A stretch of 64,000 nucleotides of DNA from an uncultured Gammaproteobacteria bacterium (GTDB lineage: Bacteria > Patescibacteriota > Patescibacteriia > UBA2591 > UBA6264). The notes under the pieces are model-generated. The model saw only the letters and a program-made list of their open reading frames with translations. It was not told the DNA's origin and made no database searches. The stretch is from positions 74,135-138,134 of the forward strand of contig CAZQVF010000001.1 of the NCBI GenBank assembly GCA_964596735.1, in the 5' to 3' direction. Shown one piece after another: positions 1,880-46,493 of the stretch (the first letter of the stretch is position 1; each line of letters starts with the position of its first letter). The translations under genes were made by a program, and so were the position numbers.

Positions 1880-1927
1880 GAACCTGCTTTGCAGAACCTT
1901 GAAATTAAAAAACATTTTAATTGTAAT
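1879..1927 (+). promoter_or_regulatory. conserved CTTGAAATTAAA element, copy upstream of porA
   Basis: AGAACCTGCTTTGCAGAACC-TTGAAA-TTAAAAAACATTTTAAT-TGTAAT: -35-like TTGAAA, a 17-nt spacer, then a -10-like TGTAAT that abuts the ATG. Confidence 0.5.
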
Positions 1928-3103
1928 ATGACCAAGAATAAGTCAAAAACGATTACCAAAGCATTAACTGGTGGAGCCGCAGCTACTGAAGCAATGCGAC
2001 AAATAAATCCAGATGTTTTTGCGGCTTATCCCATTACCCCCCAGACTCCTATTATTCAGTCCTTTGCTCAAATGGCGGCTGACAAACGCGTAGACACAAA
2101 ATTTGTTTTAGTTGAATCAGAGCACTCAGCTATGAGTTTAGTAGTCGGAGCATCAGCCGCGGGAGGAAGAGCCATGACGGCTACGGCTAGTCAGGGATTG
2201 ATTTTAATGGCCGAGGTTTTACCAGTCGCCTCTGGAACTCGTCTACCCATTGTGATGAATATTGCTACTCGGGCTCTTTCGGCACCAATTAATATCCATA
2301 ATGACCATCAAGACGCAATGGCCGTACGCGACTTGGGATGGATTCAGATTTTTTGTGAAAACAATCAAGAAGTTTATGAAAACAATTTTCTAGCCATTCG
2401 TTTAGCTGAACATTCTCAAGTCCAATTACCGGTTATGGTCTGCCAAGATGGTTTTATTACTTCACATAACACAGAAGGAGTTGAGGTTTATTCAGATAAA
2501 GTAATAAAGAGGTTTTTAGGAGAATACAAACCCAAATATCCTCTTTTAAATTTAAAAAAGCCAGTTACCATTGGCCCTTTGGCCTTGCCTGATTATTATT
2601 TTGAAATTAGAGTCCAACTTGATCAGGCCATGAAACAGGCTAAAAAAAGATATTTAGAAATCGGTCAAGAATTAAAAAAGATTACTGGCCATGATTATCC
2701 TTATTTTGAAAAATATCACCTAGACAATGCCCAAGCCGTTATTGTTACTATGGGGTCTACGGCGGGCACCTCTAAGGTTGTTATTGATAAACTAAGAAAG
2801 CAGGGAAAAAGAGTAGGATTATTAAAAATCAATTTATTTAGACCATTTCCTTACCAAGAAGTTAACAAGGTCTTATCCAAAATTAAGTATATAGGAGTTT
2901 TAGAAAGGGCACTGGGCTTTGGCTCTTATTCTCCATTAGCCAGTGAGATTAGACATTGTTTATCTTTAAAACAAAAAGTTCAAGATTATACTTTTGGTTT
3001 AGGCGGTCGCGATATTGGACCAGGAGAAATAGAAAAAGCCTTTAAGCAATTATTAAAGGGCCAGATCAGTGACCAGATAAAATATATTGGTTTGAGAAAA
3101 TAA
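1928..3103 (+). CDS. porA: pyruvate:ferredoxin oxidoreductase alpha subunit
   Basis: ALTGGAAATEAMRQINPDVFAAYPITPQTPIIQ matches the PorA N-terminus. The ORF track starts at 1889 but that overlaps the conserved upstream motif, so the ATG at 1928 was chosen. Confidence 0.8.
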   Translation: MTKNKSKTITKALTGGAAATEAMRQINPDVFAAYPITPQTPIIQSFAQMAADKRVDTKFVLVESEHSAMSLVVGASAAGGRAMTATASQGLILMAEVLPVASGTRLPIVMNIATRALSAPINIHNDHQDAMAVRDLGWIQIFCENNQEVYENNFLAIRLAEHSQVQLPVMVCQDGFITSHNTEGVEVYSDKVIKRFLGEYKPKYPLLNLKKPVTIGPLALPDYYFEIRVQLDQAMKQAKKRYLEIGQELKKITGHDYPYFEKYHLDNAQAVIVTMGSTAGTSKVVIDKLRKQGKRVGLLKINLFRPFPYQEVNKVLSKIKYIGVLERALGFGSYSPLASEIRHCLSLKQKVQDYTFGLGGRDIGPGEIEKAFKQLLKGQISDQIKYIGLRK

Positions 3104-3551: not shown

Positions 3552-4790
3552 ATGTCTCGTCAACAAACAATTACCGGAATTGATTTAGGTTCATCCACGA
3601 TTAGAATCGCGGTAGGAGAGATTCGTCCAGAAGGAGATCTGCATATTATTGGTTTAGGTGAAGGACCATCAGACGGTATTAACAAAGGAGTAATTACCAG
3701 CATTGAAGACACTGTTTCAAGTATTTCTGCTTGTGTTGAACAGGTGGAAAGAATGACTGGGCGATCTATTGAAGACGCCTATGTTGGAGTTTCTGGAACC
3801 CATATTATATCTCAAGAAAGTCGAGGCGTAGTAGCTATTTCCCGGGCTGATGGAGTAATCAAACAAGATGACGTTACTCGTGTTTTAGAGGCGGCTCAAG
3901 CTGTAGCCACTCCACCTAATTATGAGATTATCCATATTTTGCCCCGTAGTTTTTCAGTTGATAATCAAGTAGGCATTATGGACCCAGTAGGAATGACCGG
4001 TGTTCGTTTAGAGGTTGAGGCTCAAATTATTCTTGGACTTTCCAATCAAATTAAAAATTTAGGGAAGTGTTTTCTTCGAGTGGGTATGGGAATCAATGAA
4101 CTGGTTTTTGCAGTTCTTTCCACAGCCGAATCAGTTTTAGATAAAAGGCAAAAAGAACTAGGAGTTTTGGTTGTTAATATTGGTAGTAGTACGACAAGTT
4201 TTGCTGTTCTTGAAGAAGGAGATGTTTTAACCGCCAAGGTTTTACCCATTGGAGCGCGTCACATTACTAATGATATTGCTATTGGTTTACGTATTCCTGT
4301 AGATTTAGCGGAAAAAGTGAAAGTAAATTATGGAACCTCTTTATTAGAAAAAGTGGGCAAAAATAAGCTTATTAATTTCAAAGATTTAAGTGAAAAAGAA
4401 CAGGGAACGGCTTCACAAAAACAGGTTGCTAAAATTATTGAAGCCAGGTGTGAGGAAATTTTTAAAATGGTTGATAAAGAATTGGTCCGGGTTGATCGAA
4501 GTCGTAAATTGCCAGCCGGCGCTGTTTTAACTGGGGCGGGAGCCAAATTAGACGGCTTAGTAGAAACAGCTAAAAAAACATTTAAAATCCCTGCCTCTTT
4601 GGGCTTACCTCAGGGTTTTGTCAGTGGTATTAACAAGGCCTTTGATCCGAGTTTTTCTACAGCCGTTGGTTTAATTTTATGGGGTCATCGACCAGCGGGG
4701 ATAATAACCACATCACCACCTTTTTCCAAGATAGATTCGAAAATAAAGAAAGGGCTTAAAAGTATATTTAAGAGTATATTGCCTTATTAG
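3552..4790 (+). CDS. ftsA: cell division protein FtsA
   Basis: Actin-like ATPase N-terminus ITGIDLGSSTIRIAVGE; 412 aa; directly upstream of ftsZ. Confidence 0.9.
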   Translation: MSRQQTITGIDLGSSTIRIAVGEIRPEGDLHIIGLGEGPSDGINKGVITSIEDTVSSISACVEQVERMTGRSIEDAYVGVSGTHIISQESRGVVAISRADGVIKQDDVTRVLEAAQAVATPPNYEIIHILPRSFSVDNQVGIMDPVGMTGVRLEVEAQIILGLSNQIKNLGKCFLRVGMGINELVFAVLSTAESVLDKRQKELGVLVVNIGSSTTSFAVLEEGDVLTAKVLPIGARHITNDIAIGLRIPVDLAEKVKVNYGTSLLEKVGKNKLINFKDLSEKEQGTASQKQVAKIIEARCEEIFKMVDKELVRVDRSRKLPAGAVLTGAGAKLDGLVETAKKTFKIPASLGLPQGFVSGINKAFDPSFSTAVGLILWGHRPAGIITTSPPFSKIDSKIKKGLKSIFKSILPY

Positions 4791-4942: not shown

Positions 4943-6136
4943 ATGCCTAAAAAGATTAAGAAAAAATCAATAAAGAAACCAACTTCAAAGATAAAGGTAG
5001 TTGGAGTCGGTGGAGCAGGCGGTTCAGCCATAAAACGGATGCTTAAAGCTAAGATTCCAGGAGTTGAATATGTAGCGATTAATACTGATGTTCAGGCCCT
5101 ACAGGCAATCAGTGGTCGGGTTAAAAAAATTCGGATTGGCAAAGCCCTAACCAAGGGACTAGGGACTGGGGCAGATCCTGAATTAGGACAAGCAGCGGCT
5201 GAACAAAATACTCGAGAGATTAAAGAGTCGTTAAAAAATACTGACATTATCTTTATTACCGCCGGTTTGGGTGGAGGAGTCGGCACCGGGGCCAGTCCAG
5301 TAGTGGCTGATATTGCTGGAAAAACAAAAGCCTTAACTTTGGCCATTGTTACCAAGCCATTTGTTTTTGAGGGTCCGCAAAGAAAAGCGATTGCTGAACA
5401 GGGGTTGAAAAAACTTGTTAATCGAGTAGATGCTTTAATGACGATTTCCAACAACAAACTTTTACATACGATTGATCGTTCAACCCCTATTTTAGAAGCA
5501 TTTAATATTGCTGATGAAGTTTTAAAACAGGGTGTTCAAGGAATTTCTGATATTTTCAATGTTTCTGGATTAATTAATGTTGATTTTGCTGATGTCAAGC
5601 CAGTACTTCAGGGTGGAGGCATTACCATGTTAGGAATTGGCCATGCCAGTGGCAAAGACAGGGCGGCTCAGGCGGCAAAAAACGCTTTAAAAAATCCCTT
5701 AATGGATCTTTCTGCCAAAGAAGCAAATGGAATAGTTTTTATTATCACTGGTTCTCCTGATTTAAAAATGGCAGAGGTTAATGAAATTGCCGAGAGCATT
5801 ACTAAAGAAATGGATCCAATGGCAAAAATTGTCTTTGGAGCAGTGATTGATAAAGATTTAAAAGACGAAATAAAGGTAACCTTGATCGCTACTAATTATG
5901 ACCAAATAGGAAATTATGGTTTTAGTTTACAAAGCCTAGAAGACATGGAGGAAGAAGGATTAAGCCGACCTTTGGCCAAAGAAACAGAAAAAGGAAAGAT
6001 ATATGTTTATAGGGAAAAACAAAAGAAAGAAACCAAGAAGAAAACAAAAGGCAAAGAAGAAAAGGGACAAGAATTTAACTTTGAAGATGAGCTAGACATC
6101 CCTGCTTTTTTAAGAAAAAAATTAAAATCAAGATAA
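4943..6136 (+). CDS. ftsZ: cell division GTPase FtsZ
   Basis: Tubulin signature GLGGGVGTGASPVVA; VGVGGAGGSAI N-terminal GTP-binding region; lysine-rich N-terminal leader. Confidence 0.95.
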   Translation: MPKKIKKKSIKKPTSKIKVVGVGGAGGSAIKRMLKAKIPGVEYVAINTDVQALQAISGRVKKIRIGKALTKGLGTGADPELGQAAAEQNTREIKESLKNTDIIFITAGLGGGVGTGASPVVADIAGKTKALTLAIVTKPFVFEGPQRKAIAEQGLKKLVNRVDALMTISNNKLLHTIDRSTPILEAFNIADEVLKQGVQGISDIFNVSGLINVDFADVKPVLQGGGITMLGIGHASGKDRAAQAAKNALKNPLMDLSAKEANGIVFIITGSPDLKMAEVNEIAESITKEMDPMAKIVFGAVIDKDLKDEIKVTLIATNYDQIGNYGFSLQSLEDMEEEGLSRPLAKETEKGKIYVYREKQKKETKKKTKGKEEKGQEFNFEDELDIPAFLRKKLKSR

Positions 6137-6256
6137 GATGAGGTATTAAAAGTAAGGAGAAAAAGTTCCTTATTTTTTATTTTTTCCCAGTATTGACAAA
6201 ACCCTTTTTTTATGATATTATAACATTACTATAGTTAATAGGTTAAATTTAATTTT

Positions 6257-6595
6257 ATGGAGAATATTATTGAACAATTTATTCAAGGTATGATTAAAAA
6301 GGCTGGTATTGATAATATGCCAGAAGATTTTAAAAAAGAGTATACAGAAAAGTTGGCTGTTCAAGCTCAACAGCGCTTAGGCATGGTCGCTCTTCAAGAG
6401 CTTGACGAAAAAGGAGTCAAAGATTTTGAGGAATTTATGGGCAGAAAAGAATCACCAAAACCAGACGAAGTTTTGGATTTTTTTAATACTCGGATTCCTG
6501 ATTTTTCTACCAAAGTGGCTAAGACCTTAGAAGAGTTTGGCAATGAATTTATTCAAGGAGCGGCTAAATTAAAAGGAACAAAATTGAGCTCATAA
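6257..6595 (+). CDS. hypothetical protein
   Basis: 112-aa ORF, no recognised motif. Confidence 0.4.
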   Translation: MENIIEQFIQGMIKKAGIDNMPEDFKKEYTEKLAVQAQQRLGMVALQELDEKGVKDFEEFMGRKESPKPDEVLDFFNTRIPDFSTKVAKTLEEFGNEFIQGAAKLKGTKLSS

Positions 6596-6620
6596 ATTTT
6601 AATTATATTTTTACATTTTT

Positions 6621-6806
6621 ATGACCACACAAGAATCAAAAATTATTGCTGAAAAAATTAAGGAATTACAAGCCATTTATAATGAGTTTGTAAAAAAACT
6701 TGATGAATTAAGGGGCCAGAGGAGCAGCATTATTAACAATATTATTAAAAGAATTGAACACAAAAAAGTTCAGGAGAATTTGGATAAATTAAATAAAATA
6801 AAATAA
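6621..6806 (+). CDS. hypothetical small coiled-coil protein
   Basis: 61-aa charged helical ORF immediately upstream of the giant protein. Confidence 0.3.
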   Translation: MTTQESKIIAEKIKELQAIYNEFVKKLDELRGQRSSIINNIIKRIEHKKVQENLDKLNKIK

Positions 6807-6816
6807 ATTTAATTAT

Positions 6817-9800
6817 ATGATTAAAGAAAATAAAACCGGACCTGATAGGGGGGAGCCAGAGAATGAAAATCAGGAGGAGATATTTTCTCTTCAAAATAAA
6901 ATATCCATTAAGAGAGAAGCCCAAGAACAAAATAAGAGATTATTAAGAGGTAGTATCTTAGAAACAACAAATGCTCAAATTGACGAAGATATAGCCGAAT
7001 TAAACAGACAATTAGAGCAACTTGGGGTTAAAGAAGAAATCAGTCCAGAAATAGGAGTAGAAGCAATAGAAGATAGAAGGGTAGAGTTAATTCAAAAAGT
7101 AGATACGGAAAAACAAGAGTTTGACGAAGAAGGTGAATTAACCCCTGATCAAGAACAAGAGATAGCGCTAGAAGAAAGAGGGGGCTTAGTTGATATTAGC
7201 GAAAAAGCAGGCGTGGTTACCCAGAAAACAAAGGAATTATTGTCCAAAGAATTGGGTTATATTGATATTGAACCAAAAGAGATTTTTGAAAAGTTGACCC
7301 CAAAAGACTTAGATGAATTACAAATGTTAATGAAAGGGGGTAAAAGATTTGAAAAATTAGAACAAGAATTAGTTGCTTCAAGAAAAGAACTCCAAGATCT
7401 TGAAGATACTGGCATTTTTTTTAATAAAAAAGAAAAAAGAAAGAAAAAGGAGCGAATGCAAGAAATAAATCAGGAAATCAAGAAAAAAGAAAAAGAAATT
7501 AAAGAACTAAAGGAAGAGGGTAATAAAGAAGAAATAATTACTTTTTATAAAAATAAAATTAATGAAATCGCTGTTAGTCAGGGAATAGAAGAAAAATTGA
7601 CTGAAGAAAAGGCAGAAGAAATTGCTAAAAATTTACAAGAGACTATTCAACAGACCATAGATGCTCAAGCTCAAGAGGTGATAGCTAAATTTGGCTTGAA
7701 AAAGTTTGGTAAGATGGCTGGTGGAATGATTAAAAACATGGGTTTAATGTTCGGAGCGGCTGCTTTAATTGGTACCTTAGGTATAGCTACTGGTGGAGCT
7801 GGTGTGGTGGTTATGGCTGGTGGTATGGCTTTAACCCGTTTAATCGAAAAAAAGATTAGCGGAAAAATAAGAGAGGAAAAAGCGAAAAAAACCAAAGAAA
7901 AGTTTAAACAGAAATTAGAAAAAGAAAAAGACAAAGTTTTGGAATCTTTTTTTAAGGCCAAAGAAAAACTTAGAGAAAAGATGAGTGGGGTAATGAGTAA
8001 TGAAATTAGAAGACAAACCAGCAAAGAAGCCTCAGCTCTTTTAAGGGAATATAGAGACGCTAAAGTAAGTGGGAATACAGAAATTATAGAATCTAATTTA
8101 ACTGAGCTAGAAAAAGAGTTTTATTTAAGCGCTTTAACTAAAATTAAAGCAGAACATCCTAAAATTAAAGATGAGGAACAGCAGCACAATATGGCTATTC
8201 AAATGGCCATGAATTTGGCTCAATATGAAAGAGGAGAAATTGAAGGTAAGAAAAGGCTAGAAGATTTAAAAAAGGATAAACCAAAAGTTTATAAATTAGT
8301 TCAAAAATTTAATTTATTACGTAGTGGTGTTACAGATAAAAAACCAGAGGGAATGAGCAAGAAAGAGACATCACTTTGGAATAAATATAAATATGATTTA
8401 ACAAGCCTAGGAGTTGGTACGGCCATCGGTATGGCGGTTAGAACTAGTGAACTAGGTAGAGTAGCTTTTGGCGCACTTGGTGGTGTCGGGATGGGTTATA
8501 TGATGGGTGAGGCCGTGGGGAAAAGAGCAGAAAAGAAAGGGATTAAAGAGATTGAAAAAATGATTGATCAGGCCGAGGAAGTTATTGAAGACATTAGTTT
8601 TCCAGCTAATGAATTGCCTGATTTGCGAAAAAATGCCACCTTAGTTCAATCTAGATTAGAGCTAGGATTGTTAGATGTAGACCCTGTTCTTAAAAGTAGG
8701 GCTGAAAATTTTATTCATAATGTCAGGCAGGTAGAATTTGCTAATCAAAAAACACTTAATAAATTATTAGAACAACAAGAAAATAATAATAAAAAGTTAG
8801 AAAAGCAGGTTGAAAAAGATGTTACCAGAATTGAAAAGAAAACTAAAAGGCGAAGGATTTTGGCAATGGTTGGAGGAGGCTTGGCTGGTGGTTTAGCTGC
8901 GGGAGCCTTTACTGAAACAGGTAAGGATATACTTAAGGATATACGTGGATTAGGAGAAGAAGGACCAGGAATAGAACCAAGAGGGCCAGGGTCAATAGAG
9001 GGCGGGATAAAAGGAACTCCTTTTGTTGCAGCTGAATTTCCAAGCGCTCCTGATAGTTTATCTGATTCAGCTCAAGAAACATACAATCATTTAAAAAATA
9101 TTATTCAAGGAACTGAGGGAAAGCTTGGTCCAACTCTTGTCCGGGCTCAGGCTGAGGATGTGGCTGAACAATTAAAAACAGCTGCCCCTGAACAATGGGA
9201 AGAAATTTTAGAAAATTATAAAAGTGGAGATGTGGTTGAAGAAACAATTAAACAAGCATCTTCAGCCCCAGAAGCCCCTGTTCCAGAGCCGGAAGAGATA
9301 AAAATAGCCCTAAATTTAGAAAAGCCAGGAATTTCAATAGACGAATCTGCTTTTGCCAAAGAAATGCCTGAATTGGCAAATGAGCTTAAAGAATTAGAAG
9401 TAAGTTTAAAGTCATTTGACCAAAATACGTTTAACCAAATCAGAAATTTGACTGAATTAACTGACACTAATCCGGTTATTAGAGATCAGGCACTAGCGTT
9501 TTTAAAGAAATTTGAAGAAGGAGCACCTCAACTTCATGAACAAATGTTGAATGAATATGATAAAACCTTTGTTCCAGAAGCTCCAGCTCCAGAAACTCCA
9601 GGAGTCTCAGAAGAAGTTACCAAACCTTCATGGGAACAAGAAGTGGGCAGAGAAGAATTTGATTTAGAAAAGATTACTCAAGAACAATTTAATCAACTTC
9701 AAGAGAATCTTCAAGAACTTGGCCCCACCCAAGCTAAAGCAGATGCTTTGACCTTAATGGAGAAATTAAAAGAAACAGACATTGATAAATACCAGAAGAT

Positions 9801-11430
9801 GATGGAAGCACATAAGACAGGATTAGTGGAACAAAGAGACGAATTAGTTAAAGAATTAACAGGAGAGCGACCAATTACTCCCCCTGAAGCTGCTCCTGTT
9901 GAACAAGAGATAACCATTCTAAAAGAGCCTGTTACAGAAGAAACAATAATTAGTCTGGAAGCTGGTTTTGCCAAAGAATTTCCTAAATTAGCTGATAAAT
10001 TAATAGAAACAGGGCACTTCAAAGTTGATGAAAGCTTAGATACATTTGATCAATCCGCTTTTAATGAGGTTCAAAAATTGGCAGACCTTACTCCGGAAAC
10101 ACCAGATGAAGAGGTTCTTTGTGGGGAAGCAAAAGACTTTTTACAAGAATTTGAAAAGAAGTTACCAGAGGTCCATGAGAGAATGTTAGATGAGTTTGAA
10201 AAAATTGTTCCTGATCATAAGGCGTCTTTAATAGCAGAGAGAGATGCATTAATAGACGAGTTAACTGGAGAAACAACTCTGGCAGTTGAACACCTTGATT
10301 ACCAGGGCGGTAACAGTGTTTGGCGTGAAGTTGAAAATCAATTACAAGGAAGAGCTGGGTTTAAAGATTTATTCACCGGCGGGGATGAAGCAGAACAAAC
10401 TCATGCTATTGACTATTTTAAAGACAAAATTGTAGCTAATCCTCAAGAATACGGGTTGGCCGAGGCGGTTGATCCAGATGAATTAACACCAGAACACTTA
10501 AAAAGTGTAGACTGGGATAAATTACTTTCTGTTAAAGAGGGAGAAATTGATAAAGCCTTCCCAAATTTAACCGAAGAAGCAAAGCAAAATATTATAGAGA
10601 ATAATAGAATTTTACAAGAATATGTTAGTAGAACAGGAGAAGCCTTAGATACAGATACGGTTGACCAGATTTTAGAAGATGTTAAAGAAGCAGGAGGCGT
10701 TGATGAATATTTAAAACCAGAAGAAATAGTAAGACCAGAAGAAGTTGAACAACCAGAACCGGTTGATTTAAGTGGGATGAAGTGGGAAGACATGACACCA
10801 GCCGAACAAGAATTACTTGAAAATTGGGGAGAATATTTATTCATAGGTGACCGGGGCAGAGCAGCTGAGGCAGCTCAAGAGGCAGCTAAGGATTTTCTAG
10901 ATAGTCAACCACCAGAAGTGTATAACAAATATTCTGATGTTAAAGAAGTAATTCAGTATATTCGCATGGATGATTTAAATGAAGGCCTTTTCAATCGTGG
11001 CGCAGATACAGAAGACTTAATGGCCGGTGTTCAAAAATTAGCTGAAACACATGATCTCTCTGATACGGAGACCAAGCTATTTTCTAATTGGTTGGCCGGA
11101 GAAGACGGTATATTAAAAAAGAATGATTTTAGGCATGTAATAACAAATAAAATTATTGACCCAGAAAAGTTTAGTGATGAAATACAATTTTTTAAAGAGG
11201 GATACGGGGGCTCAGAAGAACTTCCCGACACTTTGACTTGGGAACCAAGACATATTTATACTGGAGAAGGGGCAGACAGAATAAAGCAATTGGTTAATAT
11301 AAGGGCAGTTGAAGGTGGTTGTCAAATAGATTCTACTGGTGATGGAATGCCTGATCAAGATGTTGTTCATCAAAGATTAGCAGTTAAACAAATGATGAGC
11401 AAAGAAGTGATAAATACAGCAGAGGCATAA
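6817..11430 (+). CDS. giant acidic coiled-coil protein with Gly-rich hydrophobic segments (hypothetical)
   Basis: 1537-aa uninterrupted ORF with a K/E-rich coiled-coil N-terminus. It has two glycine-rich hydrophobic stretches (GAAALIGTLGIATGGAGVVVMAGGMALT; ILAMVGGGLAGGLAAGAF) and internal ~100-aa repeats (FAKEMPELANEL... / FAKEFPKLADKL...; ELTGERPITPPEAAPVEQ / ELTGETTLAVE). Confidence 0.7.
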   Translation: MIKENKTGPDRGEPENENQEEIFSLQNKISIKREAQEQNKRLLRGSILETTNAQIDEDIAELNRQLEQLGVKEEISPEIGVEAIEDRRVELIQKVDTEKQEFDEEGELTPDQEQEIALEERGGLVDISEKAGVVTQKTKELLSKELGYIDIEPKEIFEKLTPKDLDELQMLMKGGKRFEKLEQELVASRKELQDLEDTGIFFNKKEKRKKKERMQEINQEIKKKEKEIKELKEEGNKEEIITFYKNKINEIAVSQGIEEKLTEEKAEEIAKNLQETIQQTIDAQAQEVIAKFGLKKFGKMAGGMIKNMGLMFGAAALIGTLGIATGGAGVVVMAGGMALTRLIEKKISGKIREEKAKKTKEKFKQKLEKEKDKVLESFFKAKEKLREKMSGVMSNEIRRQTSKEASALLREYRDAKVSGNTEIIESNLTELEKEFYLSALTKIKAEHPKIKDEEQQHNMAIQMAMNLAQYERGEIEGKKRLEDLKKDKPKVYKLVQKFNLLRSGVTDKKPEGMSKKETSLWNKYKYDLTSLGVGTAIGMAVRTSELGRVAFGALGGVGMGYMMGEAVGKRAEKKGIKEIEKMIDQAEEVIEDISFPANELPDLRKNATLVQSRLELGLLDVDPVLKSRAENFIHNVRQVEFANQKTLNKLLEQQENNNKKLEKQVEKDVTRIEKKTKRRRILAMVGGGLAGGLAAGAFTETGKDILKDIRGLGEEGPGIEPRGPGSIEGGIKGTPFVAAEFPSAPDSLSDSAQETYNHLKNIIQGTEGKLGPTLVRAQAEDVAEQLKTAAPEQWEEILENYKSGDVVEETIKQASSAPEAPVPEPEEIKIALNLEKPGISIDESAFAKEMPELANELKELEVSLKSFDQNTFNQIRNLTELTDTNPVIRDQALAFLKKFEEGAPQLHEQMLNEYDKTFVPEAPAPETPGVSEEVTKPSWEQEVGREEFDLEKITQEQFNQLQENLQELGPTQAKADALTLMEKLKETDIDKYQKMMEAHKTGLVEQRDELVKELTGERPITPPEAAPVEQEITILKEPVTEETIISLEAGFAKEFPKLADKLIETGHFKVDESLDTFDQSAFNEVQKLADLTPETPDEEVLCGEAKDFLQEFEKKLPEVHERMLDEFEKIVPDHKASLIAERDALIDELTGETTLAVEHLDYQGGNSVWREVENQLQGRAGFKDLFTGGDEAEQTHAIDYFKDKIVANPQEYGLAEAVDPDELTPEHLKSVDWDKLLSVKEGEIDKAFPNLTEEAKQNIIENNRILQEYVSRTGEALDTDTVDQILEDVKEAGGVDEYLKPEEIVRPEEVEQPEPVDLSGMKWEDMTPAEQELLENWGEYLFIGDRGRAAEAAQEAAKDFLDSQPPEVYNKYSDVKEVIQYIRMDDLNEGLFNRGADTEDLMAGVQKLAETHDLSDTETKLFSNWLAGEDGILKKNDFRHVITNKIIDPEKFSDEIQFFKEGYGGSEELPDTLTWEPRHIYTGEGADRIKQLVNIRAVEGGCQIDSTGDGMPDQDVVHQRLAVKQMMSKEVINTAEA

Positions 11431-11518: not shown

Positions 11519-12082
11519 TCACGGAGTTGTTGAGGTTCTCGGAGCTTTGGTAGTTTTTGGGCGCTTCTCCAGTGCTTCAATCCTCTGGTTGAGCTGGTCA
11601 ACCTGAATGATTTTCTGCATCTGTTCTGGGGTAAGGCGTTTGACAACCTCATCCCAAAGGTTCTGGTTTCCGCACAATACGTACTGATCCCAGGCCTTTT
11701 GTCCAAGGGAATCCCAGTCAGCCCCGTACGCGGCCTTGAAAACCGTTTCGGAAAGATCGTTAATTTTCCGACCATGGGTCTCAACCAGTCCCCGGGTTTC
11801 TGTTAAACGTTTGTGGAGTTTTTTAACGCAACGGGCGTTTCTTTCAGCTAGGGCTCGGAGAGTGTCGTTTTCAGCTTCTACACTGGTAACTCGATTTTCA
11901 ACACTTTTAACCCGCTTTTCAACGGACTCGATTTTCAGATCCACATCGGCGTGATATCCTTTCATGTCAGTAGACAGGGCAATCACGGCGCTCTTCGGTG
12001 CATAAAACACGGCGATGAGAGCGATCGAAATGCCCACTAATGTAAGGGCGATTCCAACAAGGATTTTTTCACTCTTTTTCAT
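11519..12082 (-). CDS. hypothetical membrane-anchored coiled-coil protein
   Basis: N-terminal TM (ILVGIALTLVGISIALIAVF) then a coiled coil; the codons are visibly GC-richer than their surroundings. Confidence 0.5.
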   Translation of the reverse strand: MKKSEKILVGIALTLVGISIALIAVFYAPKSAVIALSTDMKGYHADVDLKIESVEKRVKSVENRVTSVEAENDTLRALAERNARCVKKLHKRLTETRGLVETHGRKINDLSETVFKAAYGADWDSLGQKAWDQYVLCGNQNLWDEVVKRLTPEQMQKIIQVDQLNQRIEALEKRPKTTKAPRTSTTP

Positions 12083-12255: not shown

Positions 12256-14334
<2,079 letters not shown>

Positions 14335-30590: not shown

Positions 30591-31490
30591 ATGAAAACAA
30601 AAGATTTTAACCGAAAAAAAGAAGACTATTACAAAGGAGAGGCAGAAAAATGGGATCTTAGAGAGAGCTCATCTCGTCCCAGTCCAGAGAATGTTAAGCA
30701 TTATAATCAATTGGTGAAATCAGTTCTAGGCAATAAGAAAAATCCTAGAATTGTTGTTTTAGGATCAACGCCAGAAATCAGAGAGATGCTCTATAAATAC
30801 TATTTTCTTAATAAAGCAAAGATTATTTGTTTAGAACTTTTGCCAGCCATGTATTATGGAATGTCTAATTTAGTTAAACATAAATCTCCAAATGAAAAAT
30901 TTGTTCAAAGTGATTGGTTAAAAATGCCCTTTAAAAAAAACAGTATTGATATTTTTATTGGAGATTTAATCACGGGTAACATTTATAACAAGAAAGATAG
31001 AGAAAAATTATTAAGATTGATTAAAAAATGCTTAAAAAAGAATGGAGTTTTTCTTGAAAGACATCTTTACATAACTCCAAGGGTAAAAATAAAAGATGTT
31101 AAAAAACATTTATTTAGTTTTGTTCCAAAGATTATAAATGAAAAAATAAGCATTAATGCTGCGGCTACTTCTTTTTTGGCTAATTTGGTTGTTGCAAGTT
31201 GGTATCAGAACATAGAGAGGAAGCTTTCTATGATTTATTTTGAAAAAGAAATTAGAAAATTAAAAAAATATTTTCAAAAAAAGAATTTATCCTCTCAAGA
31301 CAGAATTGCCAAAGCCATATTTGATCACTTTCAGCTTTTAGGAGGAAAAAAAAGATATTGGACTTATGGGACCAAGGAACAGGAAGAAAAAGAATTAAGA
31401 GAATATTTTAAAATAGAAAAGAGATTATACGCTAAAGACTTTTATTCTGCGTCTAATGTGCCAATTTATTTATTAAGACCTAAAAAGTGA
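30591..31490 (+). CDS. array paralog 1: class I SAM-MTase-like protein (LGATPE family)
   Basis: Shares the family blocks: N-terminal W..W....RPS..E, RIVVLGSTPEIREML (motif I position), CLELLPAMYYGM (post-I), SDWLKMPFKKNSIDIFIGD (motif II-like), CLKKNGVFL (motif III-like), C-terminal IYLLRPKK. Confidence 0.8.
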   Translation: MKTKDFNRKKEDYYKGEAEKWDLRESSSRPSPENVKHYNQLVKSVLGNKKNPRIVVLGSTPEIREMLYKYYFLNKAKIICLELLPAMYYGMSNLVKHKSPNEKFVQSDWLKMPFKKNSIDIFIGDLITGNIYNKKDREKLLRLIKKCLKKNGVFLERHLYITPRVKIKDVKKHLFSFVPKIINEKISINAAATSFLANLVVASWYQNIERKLSMIYFEKEIRKLKKYFQKKNLSSQDRIAKAIFDHFQLLGGKKRYWTYGTKEQEEKELREYFKIEKRLYAKDFYSASNVPIYLLRPKK

Positions 31491-31491
31491 T

Positions 31492-32319
31492 ATGAAATCA
31501 TGGGATAATATTAAAAAATCAGAATGGCGAGGATTTGCTGAAAAATGGAGAGCTCTTAATCCCCCCTATAAACCCTCGAGAGAAAGAATAGATATTTATC
31601 ATTATTTAATTAAAAAATATGTTAAAGGCAATAAAGCTTTAGTTTTAGGGGCAACGCCTGAGATTAGAGATCTTTTAGCCAAACTAAAATTCAAAGTAAC
31701 TCTATTAGATATTAGCTTGCCAATGGTTAGGGCAATGACTTTTTTAAAAAAGACCAGGAATAAAGAAAAAATTGTTATTGGCAATTGGCTTAAGGCTAGG
31801 TTTAATGAAAAGTATGACCTAGTTATTGGTGATTCAGTGATTAATAATCTTTTGCCTGGTCAATACACTAAGTTTTTTAAACAGGTACAGAGATTTTTAA
31901 AAAATGACGGTATTTTTATTTCTCAAGGCGTTTTTTTATCAAAACCAATAAGTAAGCATAGAATTTCTATTAAACAGATTATTAATAAGGCAAAGAATAG
32001 GCCTGATTATTATAGAATTTATTCAAATAAGGCTTATGACTATTTAACATGGTCGGTTTCTCAGACTAAAAAGCATTTAGCTAATTTTGGAACATTGAAT
32101 GAGATCTGGCGCCAAAAATTGGAAAATGGACAGATAAGCAAAAAAGAATTTAAATTATTAGATTTTGATCTTCCTGAAGACTTGACAATCTCGTTTTTTA
32201 CCAAAAAAGAATTTGAAAGAACCCTTTGTAAATTTTGGCAAATACTTGATCAAACTCATGAAAAAAGCCATCGGGTTCACAAAGATTTTTATCGCATTTA
32301 TGTTTTAAAAAAGAAATAA
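31492..32319 (+). CDS. array paralog 2 (LGATPE MTase-like)
   Basis: ALVLGATPEIRDLLAK, TLLDISLPMVRAM, GNWLKARFNEKYDLVIGDSVINNL, FLKNDGIFIS, ...IYVLKKK; starts 1 nt after the previous stop. Confidence 0.85.
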   Translation: MKSWDNIKKSEWRGFAEKWRALNPPYKPSRERIDIYHYLIKKYVKGNKALVLGATPEIRDLLAKLKFKVTLLDISLPMVRAMTFLKKTRNKEKIVIGNWLKARFNEKYDLVIGDSVINNLLPGQYTKFFKQVQRFLKNDGIFISQGVFLSKPISKHRISIKQIINKAKNRPDYYRIYSNKAYDYLTWSVSQTKKHLANFGTLNEIWRQKLENGQISKKEFKLLDFDLPEDLTISFFTKKEFERTLCKFWQILDQTHEKSHRVHKDFYRIYVLKKK

Positions 32320-32320
32320 G

Positions 32321-33169
32321 ATGACAGTAAAAAATCCGAAAACAGAAACATGGAGAAAATTTATTGAAGGCTGGTCTAAATTGACCAGTCCGGGCCGACC
32401 AACAAAAAAAGAAATCATTATTTATAAAGAATTCGGATTGGCAAAACTAAAGAAAAAAGGGGCAAAAACTTTAGTCCTTGGCGCCACTCCTGAAATAAGG
32501 GATATGTTGGCAAAATATAATAATCTACAGGTTCATTTAATTGATATTAATATTGATAATTGTTTAGCAATGAGCGAGTTGATGGAAAATAAAACAGCAA
32601 AAGATGAAGAAACATGGATGAAGGCTAATTGGCTAAATAATCCTTTACCAGAAAATTATTTTGATTTAATTTACGGAGATTTTGTTGTTTGCAATGTTCC
32701 CTTTGAAAAGCAGAACAAATTTTTAGCCAATATTAAAGGATGGTTAAAAAAAGAAGGGTTGTTTATTACCCGTTGTACAAGCATAACCTCAGAATACAAA
32801 GAATTATCTTTAAGGGAATTTTGTCAGTTATTCAAAGATAAGCCGGTTAATCTAAAGACAATTAATCATTTTTGGGAATTAGGCGTTTACTTGGGAGAAA
32901 TTGCTGAAGAAAACAGGTTTAGTCCGGGCGTTTTTTATAAACGCTTAAGAAATTATCTTAGAAAACATCCTAATAAAAACATAGATAAAATATTAGAGGC
33001 TGGGGGATTTCTTTATCCCTTAGAATGGACCTGGTCTCTTTGTCCCAAAAAAAGAATTGAAAATTTGCTTTCAAAACATTTTGTGACTAAAAAAAGAGAA
33101 TTTGACACTAAAATGAATTTTATTTATCCGAATTTTTATCCTATTTATTGCTTGAAACCTAAAAAATAA
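32321..33169 (+). CDS. array paralog 3 (LGATPE MTase-like)
   Basis: TLVLGATPEIRDMLAKY, HLIDINIDNCLAM, ANWLNNPLPENYFDLIYGDFVVCNV, WLKKEGLFITR, IYCLKPKK. Confidence 0.85.
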   Translation: MTVKNPKTETWRKFIEGWSKLTSPGRPTKKEIIIYKEFGLAKLKKKGAKTLVLGATPEIRDMLAKYNNLQVHLIDINIDNCLAMSELMENKTAKDEETWMKANWLNNPLPENYFDLIYGDFVVCNVPFEKQNKFLANIKGWLKKEGLFITRCTSITSEYKELSLREFCQLFKDKPVNLKTINHFWELGVYLGEIAEENRFSPGVFYKRLRNYLRKHPNKNIDKILEAGGFLYPLEWTWSLCPKKRIENLLSKHFVTKKREFDTKMNFIYPNFYPIYCLKPKK

Positions 33170-33170
33170 T

Positions 33171-34040
33171 ATGGAAAAAAGAACAAAAATGTGGCAAAAG
33201 ATTACCCGAGATTATTGTAAGTTTGTTATTCCAAATCGGCCCAGTCTTGACGATACAAGGAATTATGCCATAGCCATTAATCAAGTATTAAAAAATAAAA
33301 AAGAACCCAAAATATTAGTGATGGGCTCAACCCCAGAGATACGCAGATTTTTGTTTACCTACACCTGTCTTTTTAATGCTCAAGTGTATTGCGTTGATTT
33401 TAGTCCAAATATGTATAAGTCAATGACAGATTTTATAAACAAAGCAGAGTTAAAAGAAAAATATATCAAGGCAAGCTGGTTAAAAACAGGGCTTAAAGAC
33501 AATTTTTTTGATTTAGCAGTGGGCGATGAAGTTATTTGTAATATTGAACCCAAAAAGCATAAAGGGCTTTTTCAAGAAACATCAAGAATCCTTAAAAAAG
33601 ACGGCTATTGGGTCACTCGACATAACATGTATCTTCCGAATCAAGCCAAACCCAAAACAATTATTTTAAACATTGTTAAAGATTTAAAACAAAAGAAATA
33701 CAGTTTTCAAGAAGCAATTCATTATCTTTTCATCACTTTATTTTACAGTCTGGTTCAAACAAACAAACAGCATCGACTTAATCAAGCAGAACAGATGAAA
33801 GAAATGAGAAAGGTATATAAAACCTTAAAAAATGATTTAGATAAAAGAGTATTAAAAGAATTGATTAAACATTTTCAAGGAAATTGGCAATCTACCTATA
33901 GTTATCATTGGTATGTATTGTCTAAAAAAGACAGTGAAAAAGAATTAAGAGAATTTTTTACTATTAAAAAGATTCTAACTCCTCGCGATTATATTACAGC
34001 CAAGAATTCACCGATTTATTTATTGAAAAATAGAAAATAA
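33171..34040 (+). CDS. array paralog 4 (LGATPE MTase-like)
   Basis: ILVMGSTPEIRRFL, YCVDFSPNMYKSM, ASWLKTGLKDNFFDLAVGDEVICNI, ILKKDGYWVTR, IYLLKNRK. Confidence 0.85.
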   Translation: MEKRTKMWQKITRDYCKFVIPNRPSLDDTRNYAIAINQVLKNKKEPKILVMGSTPEIRRFLFTYTCLFNAQVYCVDFSPNMYKSMTDFINKAELKEKYIKASWLKTGLKDNFFDLAVGDEVICNIEPKKHKGLFQETSRILKKDGYWVTRHNMYLPNQAKPKTIILNIVKDLKQKKYSFQEAIHYLFITLFYSLVQTNKQHRLNQAEQMKEMRKVYKTLKNDLDKRVLKELIKHFQGNWQSTYSYHWYVLSKKDSEKELREFFTIKKILTPRDYITAKNSPIYLLKNRK

Positions 34041-34057
34041 TAAGATATTTTAATTAT

Positions 34058-34902
34058 ATGGTAATTACAAAAAAACGAAAAAACGTTCAAGCCTGGTCAA
34101 AACAAATGGCACAAAATAGAAAAAAAGGAGACCACCAACTGCTCCTAGTATAAGCGAGCAGAAGATTTATGAAAAATTTTTAAAACAAGCTTTAAAAAAT
34201 AAAGAAAACCCTAAGGTTTTAATTTTAGGAGTTACCCCAGAGCTTCGCAATATTGCCTTAAAAAATAATTGCCAGGTTGTGTCTGTTGACATTAGTCGGG
34301 AAATAATAAAAGCAATGAAACCCTCAATAAAATATAAAGGGTTAAAAAGAGAAAAGATTATTAATGCTAACTGGCTTGCTGTTTCTTTTCCAAAGAATAG
34401 TTTTGATTTGGTAATGGGAGATGCACCCTTAACCAATCTTCTTTCTATTCATGATCTTAGAAAATTATTATTTAAAGTCCGGAGAGTATTAAAGCCAAGG
34501 GGTTTTTTCTTAATAAGAGAACTCATTCATTTATCAAATAAAAAAGCTCCATTTAAAAAAATAGTTTCTGATTATCGGAAGAATAAGATAAAATGGGAAG
34601 ATTTTTTTATGGACCTTAGATTTTATACGTTTTTTAATAAAGCCTATAATCCAAAAAATAACCTTCTTTCCGCTGATAAGATTTTTCAGGAAATTGAAAA
34701 AAAATATAAGCAAGGCGAGCTGACAAAGAAAGAATATCAAAGAATTATGATTCTTGAAAATCGAATGAAGAATTTAGTTTTATTTAAAGAAAAATTTATG
34801 AAATTAATCAAAGAAAATTTTTCCATTATTTCTATTAAAACAGATAAAGAATTTAAATTCTGTCAATATTTACCAATTTATTTGTTGAAAAATAGAAAGT
34901 AA
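34058..34902 (+). pseudogene. array paralog 5, frameshifted (or -1 frameshift-dependent) copy
   Basis: The N-terminus (MVITKKRKNVQAWSKQMAQN) reads in one frame to a TAA at 34151. The family-conserved continuation (RRPPTAPSISEQKIYEKF...VLILGVTPELRNIAL...) lies in the -1 frame, beginning inside a GAAAAAAAGG A7 run at 34120-34126. The track only reports the GTG-started C-terminal 207-aa piece. Confidence 0.7.
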
Positions 34903-34903
34903 T

Positions 34904-35749
34904 ATGGCTAAGAAAAAATTTAGTATAAAAATGAAACAGAGCTGGTTTCAAATTGCTGAGAAATGGAGAGAATATAATTATCCAGTTAAACCTTCTCCCA
35001 TGGAGACAAGATTTTTTGAAAAAGAAATAAAGGATTTATTAAAAAGGGAAAAGAGAATTAAAGCTTTAGTTTTAGGGGCAACCCCTGAATTTAGAGATTT
35101 ATTGGCTAAGCATAAAATAGACACTGTTTTAATTGATAATAATTTAACCTCTGTCAAGGCAATGACTTTTTTAATGAAAAGAAAGACTAAAAAAGAAAAA
35201 ATAGTGGTTGGGGATTGGTTAAAGATGCCTTTTAAAGAAAATACCTTTGATATAGTTTTCAGTGATTCTGCTCAGGACAATATTAAGTTTAAAAATTTCA
35301 ATAAGTTTTTTAATAATGTTTACCAAATTTTAAAGCCAGAGGGATATTGGTTTTTTGCTGCGGTTAATGTGGAAAAAAATCAAAGTATTTCTTTAAAAAA
35401 ATACATTAAAAAATACAAAGAAAAACCAAAGATTTTTAAAGATTTTAGAAATTTTGCTTCTTATTTTTTTCGAGTCGGTCGCGGTCCAGATTTTTATAAA
35501 CCCAAAACCAGAAGTTTTGATTTTGCTAAAATTGATCAAAGGGTAAAGGCCCTTATTGAGGAAGGTAAAATTTCTTCTAAAGCCCTTAAAGATATTTGTT
35601 TTCATTTAAATTATGAACAGGTTTTAATTGGTCAAACCGATTTTAAGAAAATGTTAAAAAAGAATTTTAATATTTTTAAAGAAATGAAAAAAGATAAACA
35701 TCCGGGCATGGAAATAAAGTGGGCGGCAATTTTAAAACCAAAGAAATAA
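34904..35749 (+). CDS. array paralog 6 (LGATPE MTase-like)
   Basis: ALVLGATPEFRDLLAKH, VLIDNNLTSVKAM, GDWLKMPFKENTFDIVFSDSAQDNI, ILKPEGYWFFA, ...AILKPKK. Confidence 0.85.
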   Translation: MAKKKFSIKMKQSWFQIAEKWREYNYPVKPSPMETRFFEKEIKDLLKREKRIKALVLGATPEFRDLLAKHKIDTVLIDNNLTSVKAMTFLMKRKTKKEKIVVGDWLKMPFKENTFDIVFSDSAQDNIKFKNFNKFFNNVYQILKPEGYWFFAAVNVEKNQSISLKKYIKKYKEKPKIFKDFRNFASYFFRVGRGPDFYKPKTRSFDFAKIDQRVKALIEEGKISSKALKDICFHLNYEQVLIGQTDFKKMLKKNFNIFKEMKKDKHPGMEIKWAAILKPKK

Positions 35750-35750
35750 T

Positions 35751-36638
35751 ATGGCCAAAAAGAAATTAGACAATCCTATTTGGGACGCAAAACAACAAAA
35801 ATGGTGGGAGTTTTTTTGGGGAGGAGTTAAAGCTCCTTGGCGACCGACAAAAAAGGAAATTAAATTTTGGGAAGGGAAAATTCAACAAGCTTTTAAAGAA
35901 AAAGATTTTTTACGTGTTTTAATTTTAGGGGCTACTCCAGAATTTAGAGACATGCTGACCAGGTATAAAGATAAAACAGAAGTGACCCTATTAGACGCAA
36001 ATCCGGCAGTTAAAGCAGCCATGGATAAGCTAAGGAAAAAGAGAAATTCTAAGGAAAGAATAGTTTGGGGTGATTGGCTAAAGATGCCCTTACCGTCTAA
36101 TTATTTTGACATTGTTTTTAGTGATGAAGTATTTGAGAATATTGCTTTGGAAAATCATGACAAGTTACATCAAAATATTAAACGGGTTTTGAAAAAAGAT
36201 GGTTATTTTTTAGATGGTCGGATTTGTTTAGAAGACTTTTTTAAACATCCCTTACATCTAGAACAAGTTTTAAGAAAATATAAAAGGGAGCCAAGGTTTT
36301 TCCACGATTCTTATAACCGGCTTTGGTATTTGTATCGTTTATGCCCTTCAGAAAAGCTCTTTTATAGTAAAAAAGAGCAAGCAGTTTTAATGAATAAAAA
36401 GGCAGCAGAAAAAGTATTTAATAGGGCTAAAAAAATAGGCATAAAAAACCCAAAATATTTAAATTGGGATCCAAGATTAGATTATAAGGAGCTTGATTAC
36501 AAGGAGATAGATTTAGCTAGTTTAAAAAGAGTAAAGTCAATGATTGGAAAATATTTTAAAATAGAAAAAACTTATCAGGATTTATTTCATCCAGTAATGA
36601 AAATAAAATATAATTTTGTCTGCCGTCCTAAAGAATAA
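35751..36638 (+). CDS. array paralog 7 (LGATPE MTase-like)
   Basis: VLILGATPEFRDMLTRY, TLLDANPAVKAAM, GDWLKMPLPSNYFDIVFSDEVFENI, VLKKDGYFLDG, ...FVCRPKE. Confidence 0.85.
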   Translation: MAKKKLDNPIWDAKQQKWWEFFWGGVKAPWRPTKKEIKFWEGKIQQAFKEKDFLRVLILGATPEFRDMLTRYKDKTEVTLLDANPAVKAAMDKLRKKRNSKERIVWGDWLKMPLPSNYFDIVFSDEVFENIALENHDKLHQNIKRVLKKDGYFLDGRICLEDFFKHPLHLEQVLRKYKREPRFFHDSYNRLWYLYRLCPSEKLFYSKKEQAVLMNKKAAEKVFNRAKKIGIKNPKYLNWDPRLDYKELDYKEIDLASLKRVKSMIGKYFKIEKTYQDLFHPVMKIKYNFVCRPKE

Positions 36639-36641
36639 AAT

Positions 36642-37499: not shown

Positions 37500-37502
37500 A
37501 AT

Positions 37503-40071: not shown

Positions 40072-40110
40072 AAATAAAGAAAAAGCCGTTTTGTAGCGGT
40101 TTGAAAATTT

Positions 40111-40965: not shown

Positions 40966-41019
40966 GAACCCTTCGCTACGCTCAGGAACCTTGAAATTAA
41001 AACTTTATTTTATAAATAT
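40964..41019 (+). promoter_or_regulatory. conserved CTTGAAATTAAA promoter-like element (internal to the array)
   Basis: AAGAACCCTTCGCTACGCTCAGGAACCTTGAAATTAAAACTTTATTTTATAAAT in the 74-nt gap between paralogs 12 and 13; same architecture as the copies at 1879, 4839 and 19449. Confidence 0.55.
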
Positions 41020-41039
41020 TAAGGTAGTTTAATTATAAT

Positions 41040-41891: not shown

Positions 41892-41892
41892 T

Positions 41893-42744: not shown

Positions 42745-42745
42745 C

Positions 42746-43621: not shown

Positions 43622-43622
43622 T

Positions 43623-44465: not shown

Positions 44466-44470
44466 AGTCT

Positions 44471-44764
44471 ATGAAAATTAAAATACCACCTGTTTCCATT
44501 GACACTGACAAACTAATTAAGCGCTGTGGTTATGCTGAGTTAAGAAGAAAAACAGGGGAGATAAGTTATGTTCGTCGTTTACGTGGTTATCAATACCCAC
44601 GCTTTCATGTTTATATTGAAAATGGATATTTTAATCTTCACTTAGATCAAAAGGCCCCTTGTTATCAAGGGTCTTCAGCTCACGCCGGAGAATATGAGGG
44701 AGAAATTTTAGTAAAAGAAAAAGAAAGAATAAAAGAGATCATTAATAAGTATAGAAATGAATAA
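44471..44764 (+). CDS. hypothetical 97-aa protein, unrelated insert within the array
   Basis: MKIKIPPVSIDTDKLIKRCGYAEL...RFHVYIENGYFNLHLDQKAPCYQGSSAHAGEYEG; none of the paralog blocks are present. The track calls it from 44429, overlapping the upstream gene; the ATG at 44471 was preferred. Confidence 0.4.
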   Translation: MKIKIPPVSIDTDKLIKRCGYAELRRKTGEISYVRRLRGYQYPRFHVYIENGYFNLHLDQKAPCYQGSSAHAGEYEGEILVKEKERIKEIINKYRNE

Positions 44765-46427: not shown

Positions 46428-46432
46428 ATATC

Positions 46433-46461: not shown

Positions 46462-46493
46462 TAAGAACAAGATTTATTTTTAACTATATATTT

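Follow-up and report, generated by a model that had tools for sequence, protein, structure and literature searches.

In TolA and TonB, and likewise in EsaA/YueB of the type VIIb systems, a membrane anchor is followed by a long, charged extracytoplasmic arm, mostly helical and Pro/Glu-linked, which reaches into or through the wall. The glycine-zipper families, in turn, are small outer-membrane lipoproteins of Gram-negative bacteria. Features reminiscent of both meet in a giant protein of 1537 amino acids (aa) that is encoded by a single gene in the stretch of 64,000 nucleotides (nt) analysed here, hereafter the window (contig CAZQVF010000001.1, positions 74,135 to 138,134 of the forward strand). 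The window comes from a member of the Patescibacteria (Candidate Phyla Radiation, CPR), bacteria that account for much of bacterial diversity, that have tiny cells and reduced genomes, and whose large proteins are mostly unannotated; to our knowledge they are also without many of the textbook envelope and division proteins. Comparison of the giant protein with its relatives indicates an undescribed, rare and apparently Patescibacteria-restricted family with a shared membrane core, the gene for which is paired with that of a DUF5663 protein, and both the family and the pairing appear to be new. The reading that we favour, tentatively and at a little under an even chance, is of a membrane-embedded scaffold that would work together with DUF5663 and carry a fast-evolving surface tail outside the cell. 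The analysis turns an anonymous open reading frame (ORF) of 4.6 kb into a defined family with a core, a partner and a testable topology, and the pairing gives DUF5663 its first functional context.

How widely is the family spread, and is the gene real? A word-indexed search with the giant protein found 8 proteins, and an exhaustive scan of 1.84 billion cluster representatives with a hidden Markov model found 66 relatives at an expectation value (E) of 1e-3 or below, with 41 at E <= 1e-30. The search for homologues among CPR bacteria that had been proposed in the first-pass annotation of the window was in this respect fruitful, since the relatives with named records are all from Patescibacteria, an assignment made by the record names, and all are called 'hypothetical protein'. 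Full-length members are nearly all 1000-3100 aa in length. The unusual length of the gene is also the one argument for an artefact of assembly or annotation, in which ordinary genes would have been fused by sequencing errors. The exact 1537-aa product is, however, encoded on 11 contigs that come from separate assemblies of different samples by different assemblers (10 of the 11 contigs are 50-200 kb), and it is therefore not the outcome of a frameshift or a fusion. The seven closest homologues are each one ORF, of 1291-1862 aa, as are all the relatives, and the conserved core runs across the junctions of the supposed parts. The longest minus-strand ORF within the gene does not exceed 133 aa. 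The giant gene is genuine, the probability of an artefact is practically negligible, and the claim first made for it, of one very large gene, stands with no frameshift splitting it on any of the identical contigs.

The mosaic is one of conservation. Profile positions ~100-560, which correspond to window aa ~232-705, are matched in nearly all 66 relatives, and over this core (Table 1) the giant protein is 41-70% identical to its seven closest homologues, while the repeat block that follows is essentially unalignable. Within the core lie three hydrophobic segments, the positions of which are fixed across 29 aligned relatives. In hairpin 1, where the Kyte-Doolittle score peaks at 1.84, both flanks are positive across the family, with 3.2 and 5.0 lysines plus arginines (K+R) per ~16 residues. 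Hairpin 2 contains G556 and G560, a G-x-x-x-G pair that is invariant across 29 diverse relatives, and R548, which is nearly invariant in the same set; G-x-x-x-G-x-x-x-G strings are present in the helix-turn-helix hairpins of the giant protein. The likeness to membrane hairpins and glycine zippers, which had been noticed from the letters of the gene before any search, is thereby strengthened by these strings and by the invariant glycines. Both of the Gly/Ala-rich stretches pointed out at that time were found again, as hairpin 1 and the third helix, and a further one, hairpin 2, had been overlooked.

Invariant glycines in hydrophobic helices also invite a different reading, in which identical copies of the giant protein would assemble into a channel or pore. 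Helices that form oligomeric channels are enriched in glycine zippers, and in such a protein these would surround a passage for ions, nutrients, DNA or protein while the arms served to gate it or to dock partners, in keeping with hairpins that are conserved and arms that are variable. Yet the most conserved residues, those of the ISNExR and RAENF motifs, lie in soluble helices and not in the membrane segments, no likeness to channel families is seen by sequence or by fold, and transport or secretion genes are not regular neighbours. A channel is on these grounds rather unlikely.

The partner of the giant gene is the second pillar of the argument. The DUF5663-family protein encoded in front of it has no hydrophobic segment, and its orthologues are clear DUF5663 members by precomputed PF18908 matches. 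Loci of relatives spanning the whole similarity range were scanned with core and DUF5663 profiles made for this analysis, which gave 16 distinct loci. In 15 of these a DUF5663 gene adjoins the giant gene, on the same strand and immediately upstream in 13 and immediately downstream in two (L022 and L023), and the pairing still holds at the remote relatives P0055 (E 1e-14) and P0063 (E 6e-7). An adjacency that outlasts a change in gene order and holds in remote relatives is good evidence that DUF5663 and the giant gene form a functional pair. Across loci the DUF5663 proteins are 53-79% identical, as against 41-70% for the giant cores; between the window and L011, for instance, the values are 53% and 41%. 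A search of PubMed Central and bioRxiv for DUF5663 returned no paper. Two side observations concern DUF5663 itself. In L001 a second, divergent paralogue of 109 aa and, behind it, an ORF of 81 aa are found just upstream of the main cassette (5690-7333), with an IS1595-family transposase and a Band_7 protein as neighbours. Weak NCBIfam matches to the helical part of the YdiU/SelO model (positions ~304-364) were given by six of eight DUF5663 proteins, the best at E 0.0026; a relation between DUF5663 and YdiU was considered and set aside, as the matches were judged too weak, not independent of one another and probably due to chance.

Between the two genes lies a small ORF, 61 aa long in the window, which is separated by 25 nt from the DUF5663 gene and by 10 nt from the giant gene. 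At the corresponding place in L001, L002, L005, L011, L012, L015, L018 and L019 there is an ORF of 55-68 aa, which is missing from L003, L009, L014, L022 and L023. The early suggestion that the two small upstream ORFs go with the giant gene is well served by the short gaps, by the adjoining DUF5663 gene at nearly all loci and by a promoter-like site in the spacer after ftsZ (Table 1), although that site is a consensus match only, and such matches across the region are not above shuffles (19 vs 16.4 +/- 3.6). Just past the ftsZ stop an AAGGA/TCCTT stem followed by a T-run was read by eye, and the terminator scan did not list it. Since both the promoter-like site and the stem with its T-run lie in the spacer between ftsZ and 6257, the DUF5663 gene, the 61-aa ORF and the giant gene are suggested to form a transcription unit of their own.

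The position of this cassette raises the question of cell division. It begins 120 nt past ftsZ and on the same strand, its product would combine a membrane anchor with cytoplasmic helical regions, its context is one of housekeeping genes, and in L011 a DivIC gene is found ~3 kb downstream. The giant protein could on this basis be a division or cytoskeletal accessory, an EzrA-like or FtsZ-tethering membrane protein that is expressed with ftsA-ftsZ and acts at the division site. This is decidedly unlikely: only the window and the contigs identical to it have ftsA and ftsZ upstream, the promoter-like site and the stem/T-run in the spacer before the DUF5663 gene speak against joint expression, and no EzrA, ZapA, SepF or DivIVA profile in Pfam or NCBIfam is matched. 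Downstream of the giant gene in the window are a convergent 187-aa gene and then gyrB, secE, nusG and the genes for L11 and L1. The flanks vary from locus to locus and are still of the housekeeping kind, with ftsZ/gyrB, LeuRS, SecA, SmpB, IF3/L20 and glycosyltransferases among them; upstream at the other loci are LeuRS, SecA, SmpB, glycosyltransferases, Wzz or a transposase. The 187-aa protein has counterparts of 32-34% identity downstream in L002 (E 5e-26) and L005 (E 3e-21) and none at distant loci, and because it is syntenic in close relatives only its gene probably lies outside the cassette. Separately, L012 (2852-4388) and L015 (701-2574), the loci of two distant family members, share an unannotated gene pair after smpB and before the cassette (135/263 aa and 366/356 aa, 37-40% identity), which may represent extra components in that subclade; L015 also has a gene with a Wzz domain.

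Table 1. Position and character of the giant gene, its protein segments and the neighbouring features (aa numbering is that of the giant protein; nucleotide numbering is that of the window).
Feature	Residues (aa)	Window position	Strand	Remarks
ftsA		3552-4790	+	upstream of cassette
ftsZ		4943-6136	+	upstream of cassette; 120-nt spacer to 6257
Sigma-70-like site TTGACA-17-TATTAT with TG		6193..6221	+	11/12 consensus matches; in ftsZ-DUF5663 spacer
DUF5663-family protein, 112 aa		6257..6595	+	weak PF18908 match, E 0.001, 20 bits vs cut-off 23.7
K/E-rich helical coiled-coil-like ORF, 61 aa		6621..6806	+	sub-threshold coiled-coil family matches only
Giant gene, 1537 aa		6817..11430	+	ATG start, no internal stop; end coordinate includes stop codon
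Variable, acidic, helical N-terminal arm, predicted cytoplasmic	1-125	6817..7191	+	18-36% identity to seven closest homologues
Conserved motif KELGY(I/V)DIEPKEIFEKL...L..LMKGG ahead of core	144-175	7246..7341	+	homologue alignments
Family-wide conserved helical membrane core, ~470 aa	232-705	7510..8931	+	profile mapping; all helical in AlphaFold2
Hairpin 1, hydrophobic, Gly/Ala-rich	299-343	7711..7845	+	helices of ~24 and ~20 residues; uncharged 4-residue turn
Motif LSG.ISNE.R.QTS	385-405	7969..8031	+	S394, R398 nearly invariant
Hairpin 2, glycine-zipper-like	527-565	8395..8511	+	helices of ~15 and ~17 residues; Arg-containing turn
Best-conserved soluble motif LELGLLD..P.LKSRAENFIH.V	614-644	8656..8748	+	R628, A629 invariant; E630, F632 nearly invariant
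Third hydrophobic helix	681-699	8857..8913	+	KKTKRRR just before; predicted signal-anchor
Acidic Pro-linked block with FAKE/ELTGE repeats	706-1155	8932..10281	+	lineage-specific insertion
Tail module starting YQGGNSVW	1156-1300	10282..10716	+	common to subset of relatives with GDS[IV]W modules
C-terminal module W.PR...(I/V)D.(T/N)GDG..D	1473-1518	11233..11370	+	alignment consensus
187-aa gene, N-terminal membrane helix and coiled coil		11519..12082	-	convergent with giant gene

The giant protein matches no family in Pfam (E <= 1), PHROG or PADLOC; with NCBIfam it gives only three chance-level matches (E >= 0.011, 12-15 bits, far under the cut-offs), and a PDB-sequence search likewise gives chance-level matches only (E >= 0.013). 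Pfam scans of 63 family members revealed no recurrent domain and no Ig-like or known adhesin domain, and a PADLOC scan of the three cassette proteins returned 0 defence-system families. AlphaFold2 was run twice, with 8 sequences over aa 125-705 (mean pLDDT 56) and with 29 diverse sequences over aa 237-723 (mean pLDDT 65, pTM 0.45), pLDDT being the predicted local and pTM the predicted global confidence of a model, and both models are all helical. Foldseek comparison found nothing at E <= 0.001 among PDB structures or viral models, the viral fold matches having E >= 0.37, and the predicted fold offers no functional lead. Several tape-measure models do occur among the non-significant viral fold matches (E 1.4-4.3, TM < 0.15, where TM is the template-modelling score), and the overall build, with long helical and Gly-rich hydrophobic segments, is alike. 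That the giant protein is a domesticated or remnant phage tail protein of the tape-measure kind is nevertheless very improbable: there is no PHROG match and no relative in 2.9 million viral contigs, the nearby genes are ftsA, ftsZ, gyrB, secE, nusG and those of ribosomal proteins with no phage genes among them, the family keeps its chromosomal place among housekeeping genes, and none of the fold matches is significant.

On which side of the membrane would the arms of the protein lie? Each hairpin crosses the membrane either zero or two times, and the side of the tail therefore depends on the third helix alone. Across 29 relatives the ~16 residues before this helix contain 6.2 K+R on average as against 1.9 after it, hairpin 1 has positive charge on either flank, and the N-terminus is highly charged with no signal peptide, for which reasons N-in/C-out, with the tail outside the cell, is the simplest reading. 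Several other features point the same way. The tails are poorer in K+R than the N-terminal arms (10.2% vs 14.8%), a trend that holds in all but 3 of 54 members, and they start with Pro-rich linkers, Pro making up 8% of their first 100 residues. On the N side of the core the only recognisable domains are a WipA-like metallophosphatase domain in P0056 (aa 350-569, 57 bits, over the cut-off) and a weak FtsK-gamma-like winged-helix match in P0039 (aa 575-603, 23.6 bits, under the cut-off), both within the N-terminal arm and of a type that would be cytoplasmic and so lend support to N-in. These supports, together with the Asp-Gly loop and the GDS[IV]W modules of the tail described below, are not independent of each other.

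Across the family the N-terminal arm may be as short as 121 aa or as long as 2086 aa. The first-pass annotation had proposed a look for a signal peptide, and none was found by inspection of the sequence, made without a dedicated predictor: the protein begins MIKENKTGPDRGEPENENQEE, and the first hydrophobic stretch starts only at aa 299. It had also described the N-terminus as a K/E-rich coiled coil. The helical character is upheld by AlphaFold2, which predicts the N-terminal third to be helical, but the coiled-coil signal is limited to two stretches of ~35 residues, aa 42-75 and 204-239, where alone the heptad score exceeds its threshold (70 residues vs 7.8 +/- 14.9 in shuffles), this score being a crude one made for this analysis and not a published coiled-coil predictor. 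To call the whole a coiled-coil protein was an overstatement that suits a small part only. Just ahead of the core lies a short motif, the family form of which is LGY(L/V)DI.P..I.E.L, and which the core profile picks up as a separate N-terminal stretch in many members. A visual resemblance of this motif to DUF5663 was followed up and rejected, since profile-profile comparison gave a probability of 0.5% and E 0.12 and matched another region.

The tail is where the acidity of the protein resides. Glutamate makes up 14.7% of the protein, lysine 10.1% and leucine 9.2%, and the net charge, -21 over the first 298 residues and +20 over aa 299-700, drops to -103 in aa 701-1537; the long acidic C-terminal region reported at the outset is thus confirmed. 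So too are its repeats of ~100 aa, of which at least two had been recognised and three to four are now resolved. The FAKE block is found at aa 846 and again at aa 1051, the ELTGE block at aa 1013 and again at aa 1148. An alignment of the two long copies shows 41% identity over 90 aa (E 2e-16), and a repeat-unit profile gives clear copies at aa 843-935, 940-1018 and 1048-1153 with a weak fourth at aa 734-809 (domain E 1.3e-4). Only 7-19% of the length of the repeat block can be aligned with the seven closest homologues, from which it follows that the repeats are a recent, lineage-specific expansion, and the emphasis first placed on them fell on the least conserved part of the protein. One copy of the unit (E 1.2e-7) is held by the tail of the relative P0005.

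Beyond the repeats come two further modules. That beginning YQGGNSVW is 74% identical to its counterpart in P0002 and 52% to that in P0003, and is not conserved in the rest of the seven closest homologues; 15 of the proteins retrieved have GDS[IV]W-type modules. In three of four relatives these modules give partial matches to LysM (PF01476, ~43 residues) over positions 2-26, at E 0.036-0.19 and below the cut-off, and a LysM identity is kept as a lead only. The C-terminal module includes an EF-hand/dockerin-like Asp-Gly loop, QIDSTGDGMPDQD at aa 1503-1515. Of 60 members, 18 have the strict motif D-x-[DN]-x-DG-x-x-[DEN] in the tail and none has it in the N-terminal arm, and the loop of the window protein is a near-match to it, with T at position 3. 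An NlpC/P60-type peptidase was considered in the tail of P0026, on account of a GLDC...GHGG pattern, and dismissed, there being no Pfam or PDB match even at E <= 10.

It is this tail that gave rise to the idea, present from the start, of a surface or host-attachment factor. In its full form the idea makes the giant protein mainly an adhesin or attachment fibre, with the tail as its functional part and the rest only an anchor. The tail is predicted to be extracellular and is acidic, repeat-bearing and fast-evolving, and an Asp-Gly loop and LysM-like motifs occur in the family, such that an exposed tail is plausible from the charge bias and the tail motifs. Conservation, however, is strongest in the core and in a partner of cytoplasmic type and not in the tail; the protein has neither a signal peptide nor Ig-like or other beta-rich repeats, the scans of 63 members contain no known adhesin domain and no other known surface domain appears, and the gene is single-copy among housekeeping genes and not in variable islands. 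A protein that is mainly an adhesin is on balance improbable. The interpretation as a surface or attachment factor is supported only in part, and a role in host attachment is no more than possible, because the conserved part consists of the core and a partner predicted to be cytoplasmic, and housekeeping genes lie around the cassette.

How might a membrane-embedded scaffold that works with DUF5663 be put together? On the cytoplasmic side would be the N-terminal arm (aa 1-231) together with the core's soluble helices, while the two Gly/Ala-rich hairpins would enter the membrane, or pass through it, and turn back. The third helix would then act as a signal-anchor and place the acidic tail of ~840 residues outside. 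Packing of the glycine-zipper helices could assemble the protein into a membrane platform, probably an oligomeric one, whose cytoplasmic face, formed by the ISNExR and RAENF helices, would dock DUF5663 and the small coiled-coil protein. On the other side the tail, in which repeats expand and which includes Pro/Glu linkers, a GDSxW module and an Asp-Gly loop, may contact the wall, a surface layer or a partner cell. Overall, a trans-membrane scaffold encoded among housekeeping genes would link a complex in the cytoplasm with the cell surface. Established here are the gene, the family with its core, the adjoining DUF5663 gene, the mosaic conservation and the charge bias; the topology, the oligomeric state, any physical binding between DUF5663 and the giant protein, and any part in the envelope or in attachment are inferred.

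A number of observations weigh against this scaffold reading. These are (i) that the 15-17 residues of each hairpin 2 helix fall short of what an ordinary membrane span needs and that the turn of this hairpin holds a conserved Arg, so that hairpin 2 may be re-entrant or may not be in the membrane at all; (ii) that the third helix is only moderately hydrophobic, with a mean Kyte-Doolittle score of ~1.5; (iii) that the topology rests on charge counts made in this analysis and not on a dedicated predictor; (iv) that both AlphaFold2 models are of low confidence, with pLDDT < 50 in the hydrophobic segments; (v) that the GNSVW module of the window protein has itself no match to LysM (PF01476), and that the motifs confined to tails lie in homologous modules and hence are not independent observations; (vi) that in one locus, L004, a contig of 9.6 kb, no DUF5663 gene lies inside the ~2 kb available on either side; and (vii) that the Pfam, NCBIfam, PHROGs, PADLOC, PDB-sequence and fold searches give no specific functional anchor.

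A bolder version of the scaffold can also be drawn. The cassette would in this case be a Patescibacteria-specific trans-envelope housekeeping machine, in which an oligomeric glycine-zipper platform couples a cytoplasmic arm to a calcium-dependent outer arm that binds the wall or surface, and which substitutes for missing envelope or division components. Within such a machine the hairpins may serve as reticulon-like wedges in highly curved, ultra-small cells, and the cytoplasmic arm would in some lineages hold DNA-binding-like or phosphatase modules. This proposal is speculative and rather unlikely. If the cassette is an envelope-spanning scaffold it offers a handle on surface organisation or host attachment in these cells, and if the giant protein is only a lineage-specific surface protein then it is of local interest.

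The window contains several further features that stand apart from the cassette, all but the gyrB genes listed here on the plus strand. At 30591-49208 there are ~20 head-to-tail ORFs of 275-316 aa together with a double-length ORF of 556 aa (44757-46427). Four sampled ORFs match models of class-I S-adenosylmethionine methyltransferases (Methyltransf_11/25/31), the 556-aa ORF doing so in two stretches, and the whole is an unusually long tandem array of paralogues. A pyruvate phosphate dikinase gene at 52948-56625 is split by an intein, in which there is a LAGLIDADG homing endonuclease (Intein_splicing, LAGLIDADG_3). The gyrB gene of the window (12265-14334, 689 aa) is without an intein, and that of a close relative (L002, 6216-9845, 1209 aa) has one (Intein_splicing, HTH_19). 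A 901-aa membrane protein of the UPF0182 family is encoded at 57932-60637 (E 4e-270), and an alpha-type subunit of pyruvate:ferredoxin oxidoreductase at 1889-3103 (POR_N, PFOR_II).

With which of the known systems, then, does the giant protein have most in common? The Gly/Ala-rich helix-turn-helix with G-x-x-x-G spacing is that of the glycine-zipper hairpin families (PF13488 Gly-zipper_Omp, PF13441 Gly-zipper_YMGG and PF05433 Rick_17kDa_Anti, with the SlyB/PCP-type lipoproteins), and among 31 family members scanned there is one weak match each to Gly-zipper_YMGG (E 6e-5) and Gly-zipper_Omp (E 4e-4). The window protein matches none of the three models, however, and, unlike these lipoproteins, has its three segments inside a helical core of 470 aa, in proteins of 1000-3100 aa that have no lipobox. 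Tape-measure proteins are similarly very long and almost wholly helical with central Gly-rich hydrophobic segments, but are not matched by sequence, by profile or significantly by fold, and the giant gene differs from them in its housekeeping locus and its conserved DUF5663 partner. With the giant adhesins of the Bap/RTX type the protein shares its size, an acidic repeat-bearing region and a possible calcium-binding loop; in contrast to these it has no recognisable signal peptide or C-terminal secretion signal, has a conserved membrane core, is all helical over aa 125-716, the part modelled, where the adhesins are beta-rich and Ig-like, and belongs to a family in which the Pfam scans show no adhesin domains. 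EzrA and other anchored helical proteins associated with FtsZ resemble it in the membrane anchor and the helical cytoplasmic regions, and in the window also in the ftsA-ftsZ neighbours, whereas a profile match is absent, the linkage is not conserved, and topology and size differ. The overall layout of an anchor followed by a long charged arm is that of TolA/TonB and EsaA/YueB. Pfam and PDB searches show no homology to these proteins and no Tol, Ton or ESX genes are adjacent, and to their plan the giant protein adds a large cytoplasmic arm and two hydrophobic hairpins.

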